Notes under the pieces: model-generated
Seen by the model: the letters and a program-made list of their open reading frames with translations, nothing else
What the model was told of the DNA's origin: nothing
Databases searched by the model: none
UHGV virus genome: UHGV-0041832
Reading direction: 5' to 3' (one strand)
DNA length: 52,506 nucleotides
DNA from: a virus
Program-made: the position numbers and the translations under genes
Part shown: piece by piece, positions 43,918 to 43,943 of the stretch
How positions within the stretch are numbered: position 1 is the first letter of the stretch
Layout: each line of letters begins with the position of its first letter

Positions 43918-43943
43918 TATTTTTCGCGTAGAAGCGCGTAAAG
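43918..43943 (+). repeat. 23-nt exact repeat TTTTTCGCGTAGAAGCGCGTAAA (second copy at 31537-31560)
   Basis: Identical string upstream of portal gene and upstream of tail M gene; contains direct repeat CGCGTA-GAAG-CGCGTA. Confidence 0.85.

Follow-up and report, generated by a model that had tools for sequence, protein, structure and literature searches.

The repeated element and its two gene contexts

Two late genes in the window, by which we mean the whole 52,506-nt stretch of phage DNA analysed here, are preceded by the same short sequence. An exact 25-mer, TATTTTTCGCGTAGAAGCGCGTAAA, is present at 31536–31560 in the gap between the terminase and portal genes (copy P) and at 43918–43942, 32 nt upstream of tail gene M (copy M), in both cases on the + strand. 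The original prediction had described an exact repeat at these places, between terminase and portal and before tail M beside an opposite-strand cassette, and it was correct on both counts: the 23-mer TTTTTCGCGTAGAAGCGCGTAAA has exactly two copies (31538–31560 and 43920–43942, + strand), with no further match at up to three mismatches in the window and none in 100 shuffles of it, none being expected by chance. The internal direct repeat CGCGTA-GAAG-CGCGTA and the potential CGCG/CGCG stem were also found as described, both within the element, the CGCG arms lying at 31543–31546 and 31553–31556 in copy P and at 43925–43928 and 43935–43938 in copy M. The arrangement CGCGTA-N3-5-CGCGTA occurs in the window only at the two copies (0.02 expected). 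Likeness between the copies goes beyond the 25-mer, to 35 nt at 91% identity, and the homologous units span approximately 31529–31570 and 43911–43952. A covariance model built from 28 element variants and run on the window scored 71.8 bits for copy M and 67.2 bits for copy P, the next-best match reaching 15.6 bits; mismatch and gapped-pattern searches, this model, and a degenerate scan of IMG/VR all failed to turn up a third or diverged copy. The 23-mer is the core of a putative cis element of ~42 nt, TTCTNA-TTTTT-CGCGT-AGNN-RCGCG-TAAA-N-ATRTATNCA.

The window is, from its sequence, an mEpimmI-group (mEp021-like) temperate coliphage, the tail region being 83–89% identical to those of mEp021, MagusPhagus, and other mEp phages. 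The mEpimmI temperate coliphages have been described, and an N-like antiterminator (Gp17) and three nut sites were reported for the family (PMC11893012); signals of the late region were not discussed in that paper.

Copy P is housed in a gap of 79 nt between the large terminase gene (29989–31503; Pfam Terminase_6C) and the portal gene (31583–32953; PF06381, Phage_portal_3). The rest of the portal leader (31561–31585, + strand) consists of a spacer, the Shine-Dalgarno sequence AGGAG (31570–31574), and the ATG at 31583. The portals of ES18 and SPN3UB align from residue 1 of this start, and translation of portal probably does not begin at the in-frame ATG further upstream (31562). A homologous portal gene of an Escherichia coli prophage is labelled "anti-CBASS protein Acb1 family protein" in RefSeq; ES18 gp5 is the virion portal and Pfam gives Phage_portal_3 for the 31583–32953 product, and the Acb1 label is probably a naming artefact.

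The structural genes presumably belong to one antiterminated + strand transcript, because the window encodes a lambda-type Q antiterminator (19711–20439; PF03589) and carries a candidate late promoter/terminator cassette. The latter, at 26676–26749 directly 5' of the holin gene, has TTGTAG-17 nt-TAAAAT with a -10-like CTAACAAT just downstream, followed by the intrinsic terminator CCCGGCCCCGCGCCGGG and a T-run; it is kept in seven relatives and fits a lambda-type Q.

Copy M lies in a divergent gap between tail gene M (43975–44328; PF05939) and a minus-strand cassette (43380–43807) that stands between the tape measure gene and M and is not part of the element. The cassette comprises a 51-aa ORF (43652–43807) and a gene for a ParE-like toxin (43380–43634; PF24732, E = 8.7e-12), both on the minus strand, and probably represents an accessory toxin-antitoxin module. 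The element persists in relatives whose leftward gene is a different one (L060 and L061). A bidirectional intrinsic terminator at 43298–43320 separates the tape measure gene from the cassette, and late transcription must pass it or restart downstream in order to reach M. The cassette has its own leftward promoter at 43848–43890 (minus strand), composed of TTTACAAAATGGC, TTCACA, 17 nt, and TATATA; in + strand coordinates its -35 is at 43871–43876 and its -10 at 43848–43853. The hexamers are conserved among relatives while the spacer is variable, and the architecture matches that of the early promoter of this phage at 10741–10782.

On the + strand, a TATAAT hexamer (43895–43900) is situated 19 nt upstream of copy M. 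It showed no variation in 25 unique relatives, in which the flanking positions vary; its -35 partner is poor (GTGAAG), and a consensus promoter scan makes no call there. We infer that this hexamer may serve as the -10 of an internal promoter directed rightward, P_M, for M-L-K-I-J, in which case the element would occupy about +11 to +36 of the M-L-K-I-J transcript. The element would thus be carried in the M leader RNA either from P_M or by antiterminated read-through past 43298–43320. The conserved blocks upstream of M are the invariant TATAAT, the element, and ATGTAACTTA. The last of these, itself invariant, includes a conserved minimal start-stop, ATGTAA, at 43953–43958 of the M leader, ~20 nt 5' of the M start.

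Several other features of the window were recorded along the way. The 10-mer TACAAAATGG has nine exact copies (5800, 9786, 10743, 18177, 18242 on the minus strand, 40873, 40899 on the minus strand, and 43487 and 43878, both on the minus strand) and 21 copies with at most one mismatch, against 5.9 expected. It stands directly 5' of a -35/17 nt/-10 arrangement at 10741–10782, at 40871 before the tape measure gene, and at 18176, and the same layout appears on the minus strand at 43890–43848 and 44408–44370. TACAAAATGG may mark a family of promoters, or be an operator motif, peculiar to the phage and common to early and accessory-cassette promoters. The last site belongs to a leftward promoter between M and L (44350–44414, minus strand), ATACCAAAATGGA-TTGATC-17 nt-TATATT. 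No minus-strand cassette follows it in the window, where mEp021 has four genes, and it is now directed antisense into gene M. Another opposite-strand cassette (40164–40823, minus strand), between the tail chaperone and tape measure genes, encodes a VasI-domain protein (PF11319, E = 1.2e-15; type VI secretion system). Three tandem 173-nt units, 82–84% identical, lie at 7305–7864 inside a 307-aa minus-strand ORF of the early-left region, and repeats with a period of 108 nt (36 aa) lie at 49402–50246 inside the 1,656-aa tail fibre (J-like) gene. Three runs of N (10546–10651, 36639–36726, and 51398–51445) are masked stretches or assembly gaps; they coincide with the terminators annotated in mEp021 after the repressor, capsid, and tail fibre genes, and the third is bordered by a long T-run and a long A-run.

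Conservation of the element and identity of its copies

Relatives were sampled through a protein anchor, either M or portal, and therefore independently of the motif. The element had been proposed as something to look for at the gene junctions of related phages, and it is there: at the same place in all 31 M-anchored IMG/VR loci with M of at least 82% identity, and before the portal gene in all 50 usable portal-anchored loci. M homologues at 67–71% identity, which belong to other phage groups, have a terminator or coding sequence in place of the element, and no such element precedes the portal gene in SPN3UB, ES18, or JBD88b (portals 55–60% identical). A degenerate scan of IMG/VR with the pattern TTTTCGCGT-N5-CGCGTAAA returned 35 distinct M-type contexts, 36 distinct portal-type contexts, and one chance match, with no third genomic location. 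Among complete E. coli genomes, the portal leader was found in 33 of 5,426, once in each and always chromosomal; a contig scan with the capsid protein gave no match. No described RNA family was recognised in Rfam 15: nothing in the window reached a gathering score, and the hits around the two copies did not rise above chance level (E > 1). The element is universal among the sampled genomes of the family and absent outside it.

Outside its 5-nt centre, the element has a nucleotide diversity of 0.003 in the portal copy (41 unique sequences) and 0.013 in the M copy (25 unique sequences). The corresponding values are 0.25 (portal) and 0.33 (M) at third codon positions of the following gene, 0.21 and 0.23 in the spacers just upstream, and 0.035 and 0.058 at first and second codon positions. 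The diversity of the element is thus 20–80 times below that of nearby neutral sites, and the purifying selection on it is strong. The 5-nt centre is freer, at 0.039 in the portal copy and 0.143 in the M copy. In the portal gap, conservation begins abruptly at TTTTTCTA after a hypervariable spacer. Because the 53 nt that begin with the element and take in the Shine-Dalgarno sequence and the ATG are nearly invariant (pi = 0.012) and the 25 nt just upstream are hypervariable, the constrained unit at this copy is the translation-initiation leader rather than a 25-bp site.

The two copies are not normally identical within a genome. The consensus over the family reads CGCGTAGAAGCGCG for the M copy and CGCGTAGCAACGCG for the portal copy, and locus-specific centres (GAAG at M and GCAA at portal) were found in 25 of the 28 genomes in which both copies were readable, so that the usual within-genome identity is 21/23 with a 2-nt difference in the centre. 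The copies are homogenised in the other three, two of which (the window and one IMG/VR contig) have GAAG at both loci and one GCAA at both. The exact identity seen in the window is therefore an occasional homogenisation and not the state of the family; it presumably arose by gene conversion over roughly 40 nt of homology. The original prediction had argued for a cis-acting signal from exact conservation at two late-operon junctions. A signal at those junctions is well supported, but the exact identity is a peculiarity of the lineage, and the argument built on it was overstated because the norm of the family is 21/23.

A proposed leader hairpin in late mRNA and its alternatives

We tentatively favour, with a probability of roughly 0.45, the reading that the element is a cis-acting RNA signal controlling the translation or stability of the downstream cistron. 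It would act in the + strand late mRNA, in the leaders of the portal cistron and of the tail-tip gene M cistron, by forming a hairpin in which a 4-nt loop caps a 5-bp stem (CGCGU/RCGCG), the stem being lengthened where the 5' U-run pairs with the 3' AAA across a bulged U. Such a hairpin would be a post-transcriptional control point for the cistron that follows, either as an operator recognised by an RNA-binding factor with sequence specificity or by determining the processing and stability of the RNA, which would set the amounts of portal and M protein. The dosage of portal and M could thereby be set independently of the upstream terminase and tape-measure segments. We infer from the sequence that both copies are transcribed into RNA, where they fold into the hairpin and control a downstream process. 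Among the options originally put forward, those at the RNA level (processing or translational control) fit best. The scan found no promoter-like or terminator-like site near the portal copy, so no function common to both copies can hinge on transcription initiation.

The fold itself was predicted by ViennaRNA on the + strand in both copies (CGCGU-AGAA-GCGCG, 5-bp stem, 4-nt loop), with the stem extended by the U-run pairing with AAA across a bulged U. The predicted energy is -10.6 kcal/mol for the M copy (z = -2.35) and -6.5 kcal/mol for the portal copy (z = -0.13), the latter being thermodynamically unremarkable. The hairpin is also predicted in nearly all natural variants, which include the centres AGAA, AGCA, AGAG, GGAA, AGCU, and AGCG, as well as a 1-nt deletion that shortens the loop in two metagenome contigs (L064 and L065). 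Position 15 alternates between G and A (U.G or U-A), and the sole changes in the arms are C-to-T (L063/L068 and L067), which keep a G.U pair in the + strand RNA and give a C.A mismatch in that of the other strand. Standard pairs fill 92.9% of the pair cells, as against 22–75% in slid registers, and seven pairs show one-sided, wobble-compatible changes. The fold is not proven by these data, because a two-sided compensatory change was found at no pair, the variation being too small, and column shuffles reach the observed covariation score. The stem sequence is invariant in about 70 portal copies; this includes a metagenome scan for compensatory variants with the 14-nt core left free, which gave 20 hits, all of them with invariant arms. 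The hairpin fold of the + strand is thus compatible with the variation and mildly favoured by it.

An invariant stem, together with the TA conserved in parallel after each CGCG, is equally natural for a double-stranded DNA site made of two tandem CGCGTA half-sites spaced at 10 bp, on one face of the helix. Its ligand, a protein of the phage or of the host, would bind as a tandem dimer, either as a roadblock or repressor after P_M and before portal or in an architectural role. This is the main alternative to the RNA signal, albeit one that we judge rather improbable. Both half-sites are invariant including the TA, with variation confined to the 3–4 nt between them; the arm changes noted above fall only at the equivalent first C of either half-site; the stem is frozen with no compensatory changes; and the tandem arrangement is, as mentioned, found in the window only at the two copies. 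These observations have to be set against the natural variant with 9-bp spacing (L064/L065), the absence of a promoter near the portal copy for such a protein to regulate, and the conservation of the T-run and A-run flanks, which are able to pair with each other. Conservation at portal, moreover, extends through the ribosome-binding site to the ATG, far beyond 16–25 bp, and no candidate binding protein was identified. A resemblance to the CpxR box, which is GTAAA-N5-GTAAA, was set aside, as it would leave the invariant CGC before each GTA unexplained. An antitoxin operator at the M copy is also unlikely: the element is ~80–100 nt upstream of the cassette start site, persists next to a different leftward gene, and occurs at portal too.

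Returning to the RNA signal in the late mRNA, the position of the hairpin within the leader bears on how it might work. A transcript starting at P_M, ~7 nt after TATAAT, would leave 10–12 unpaired nt before the stem, more than a classic 5'-terminal stabiliser of the ompA kind would allow, unless processing of the RNA came first; a processed 5' end in the U-run before the hairpin is our conjecture. We think it unlikely that a single trans-acting factor specific to the family, be it a protein or an RNA, has both hairpins as its operators, so that they form a small post-transcriptional regulon of the late operon. If this were true, a shared factor would read the frozen CGCGUA-containing structure before the portal and tail-tip genes, and would coordinate or feedback-limit two low-copy assembly initiators, portal for heads and M for tail tips.

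A nut-like, pause, or antitermination signal is a second RNA-level alternative and, in our opinion, a very unlikely one. The element would here provide a boxB-like hairpin preceded by a pyrimidine-rich TTCTNA and would modify or pause RNA polymerase in a late operon that is interrupted by terminator-flanked opposite-strand cassettes. The family does use an N-like Gp17 with three nut sites (PMC11893012), and the M copy is downstream of a bidirectional terminator; no terminator, on the other hand, follows the portal copy, and late read-through is already accounted for by Q (PF03589) and the conserved pR'-tR' cassette at 26676–26749. Putative nut sites located from the sequence itself lie at 18270–18302, 11037–11074, and 9672–9705 (minus strand), each with a boxA-like TGCTCTTTAAAAA or CGCTCATTAACAA followed by a short GC hairpin, and are probably the nutR2, nutR1, and nutL reported for mEp021. 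Exact or near boxA copies occupy 18270–18282, 11037–11049, and 9693–9705 (minus strand). The boxB-like hairpins of these sites (18290–18302, 11058–11074, and 9672–9685 on the minus strand) resemble the element in having short GC stems and purine-rich loops. Their loops, however, are of the G-N-R-A type (GAAA, GGAA, and GCGA), whereas those of the element are AGAA or AGCA, with GGAA in 1 of 72 variants only, and the real boxA sequences TGCTCTTTAAAAA and CGCTCATTAACAA are confined to the early sites. The element was accordingly rejected as a lambda-type nut site: the boxA consensus (YGCTCTTTA) is absent, only TTCTNA or TCTTA preceding the element.

Alternatively, the tandem repeats could be an activator site over a weak -35, in the manner of lambda CII, so that the portal- and M-block transcripts start just downstream of the element; we regard such an activator-dependent late promoter as highly improbable. 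Its appeal comes from the 10-bp phasing of the direct repeats, which resembles that of CII-type sites, from the block T-R-T-A-T-N-C-A common to both copies 6 nt after the second repeat, and from the place of each copy before the first gene of an assembly module. The conserved block nevertheless lacks the final T and is unfit in spacing, so there is no acceptable -10, and neither copy is called as a promoter in the scan. Were the transcript to begin downstream of TATTCA, it would lack the portal Shine-Dalgarno sequence, and in most relatives the would-be -10 of the minus strand carries a G at its second, critical position. As a CII-type site, the element was rejected because, with the phasing present, no -10 (A at position 2, T at position 6) lies ~12–13 bp downstream on either strand. 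A sigma-70 promoter was likewise rejected, as the copies have no -35/-10 pair at 16–18 bp in common and only the M copy is preceded by TATAAT.

A recombination linker or passively kept duplicate, which would promote exchange or be homogenised by conversion and have no role in expression, has only a slim chance of being right: the copies do sit at mosaic boundaries (terminase 3' ends and spacer vary before P, cassettes before M), homogenisation went in both directions in the 3 of 28 genomes, and an Erf-type recombinase is encoded by the phage (mEp021 annotation), but a diversity 20–80 times below neutral with near-invariant arms beside a free centre is neither needed by nor expected of a linker, the element stays conserved amid ordinary diverged flanks on both sides, and the locus-specific centres kept in 25 of 28 genomes mean that conversion is rare and cannot explain the conservation. 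This option of the original prediction is therefore not favoured. The probability left beyond the preferred reading and these four alternatives belongs to explanations that we have not considered.

Three other candidates were examined and set aside. An intrinsic terminator is not called at either copy, and the T-run is on the wrong side on either strand: on the + strand it is 5' of the hairpin with TAAAG after it, and A5 comes after the hairpin on the minus strand. The candidate pR' spacer (26676–26704) shares the 9-mer GCGTAAACA with the portal copy; this was judged a coincidence, because the stretch varies in relatives (GTCGTAAAC, GTCGAAAAC, and AGCGCAAAC) and because the window as a whole has an excess of GCGTAAAC, with 10 copies where 2.45 are expected. 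Within the portal gene, 13 nt at 32381–32393 are perfectly complementary to the 5' half of the element; this was likewise put down to coincidence rather than long-range pairing, because these nucleotides are freely variable at synonymous sites in relatives.

In lambda-like phages, late genes are usually described as being expressed from one long antiterminated transcript, with the ratios of the proteins set by ribosome-binding sites. A strongly selected, family-wide signal before exactly two assembly-initiating genes would point to a further level of late control in these phages, which are common in the human gut. The interest is modest unless a dedicated trans-acting reader is found. The element also offers a compact marker sequence specific to mEpimmI prophages, and it lends itself well to mutational tests in which the stem is disrupted and pairing then restored by compensation.

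Comparison with known systems

The element resembles the boundary or linker sequences of mosaic lambdoid phages in that it stands where conserved sequence resumes and in that its copies occasionally exchange. Unlike them, it is constrained much more strongly and is more structured than recombination homology requires, and it is present in two copies in one genome, in direct orientation and flanking essential genes. With the lambda CII sites (TTGC-N6-TTGC) and the tandem half-sites of response regulators, it has in common two identical short half-sites with 10-bp phasing; it differs from both in having no promoter geometry around the repeats, in its one 9-bp-phased natural variant, and in its self-complementary CGCG arms with pairing flanks.

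Lambda-type nut sites, including those of mEp021, are similar in their small GC stem and purine-rich loop, in the pyrimidine-rich stretch a few nt upstream, and in occurring in a Nus-dependent phage. Unlike these sites, the element is without the boxA consensus, its loop starts with A rather than G, it belongs to the late and not the early region, and no terminator comes after the portal copy.

Stem-loops in leaders and intercistronic regions set the stability or translation of what lies downstream, as in the 5' stem-loop of ompA, the coat-protein hairpin of MS2, and the targets of T4 gene 32 and regA. As in these systems, the element would be a short hairpin in an untranslated leader, 11–25 nt upstream of the Shine-Dalgarno sequence, conserved together with the ribosome-binding region, with a bulge in its stem and a small loop in which the bases are partly fixed. 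It differs in that one type of hairpin stands at two unrelated cistrons of one operon; its stem consists of only 5 GC/GU pairs plus 3–6 A-U pairs, and the primary 5' end predicted at M lies at a distance from the hairpin instead of flush with it. The element, although undescribed, thus looks in kind like an ordinary short leader hairpin or operator.
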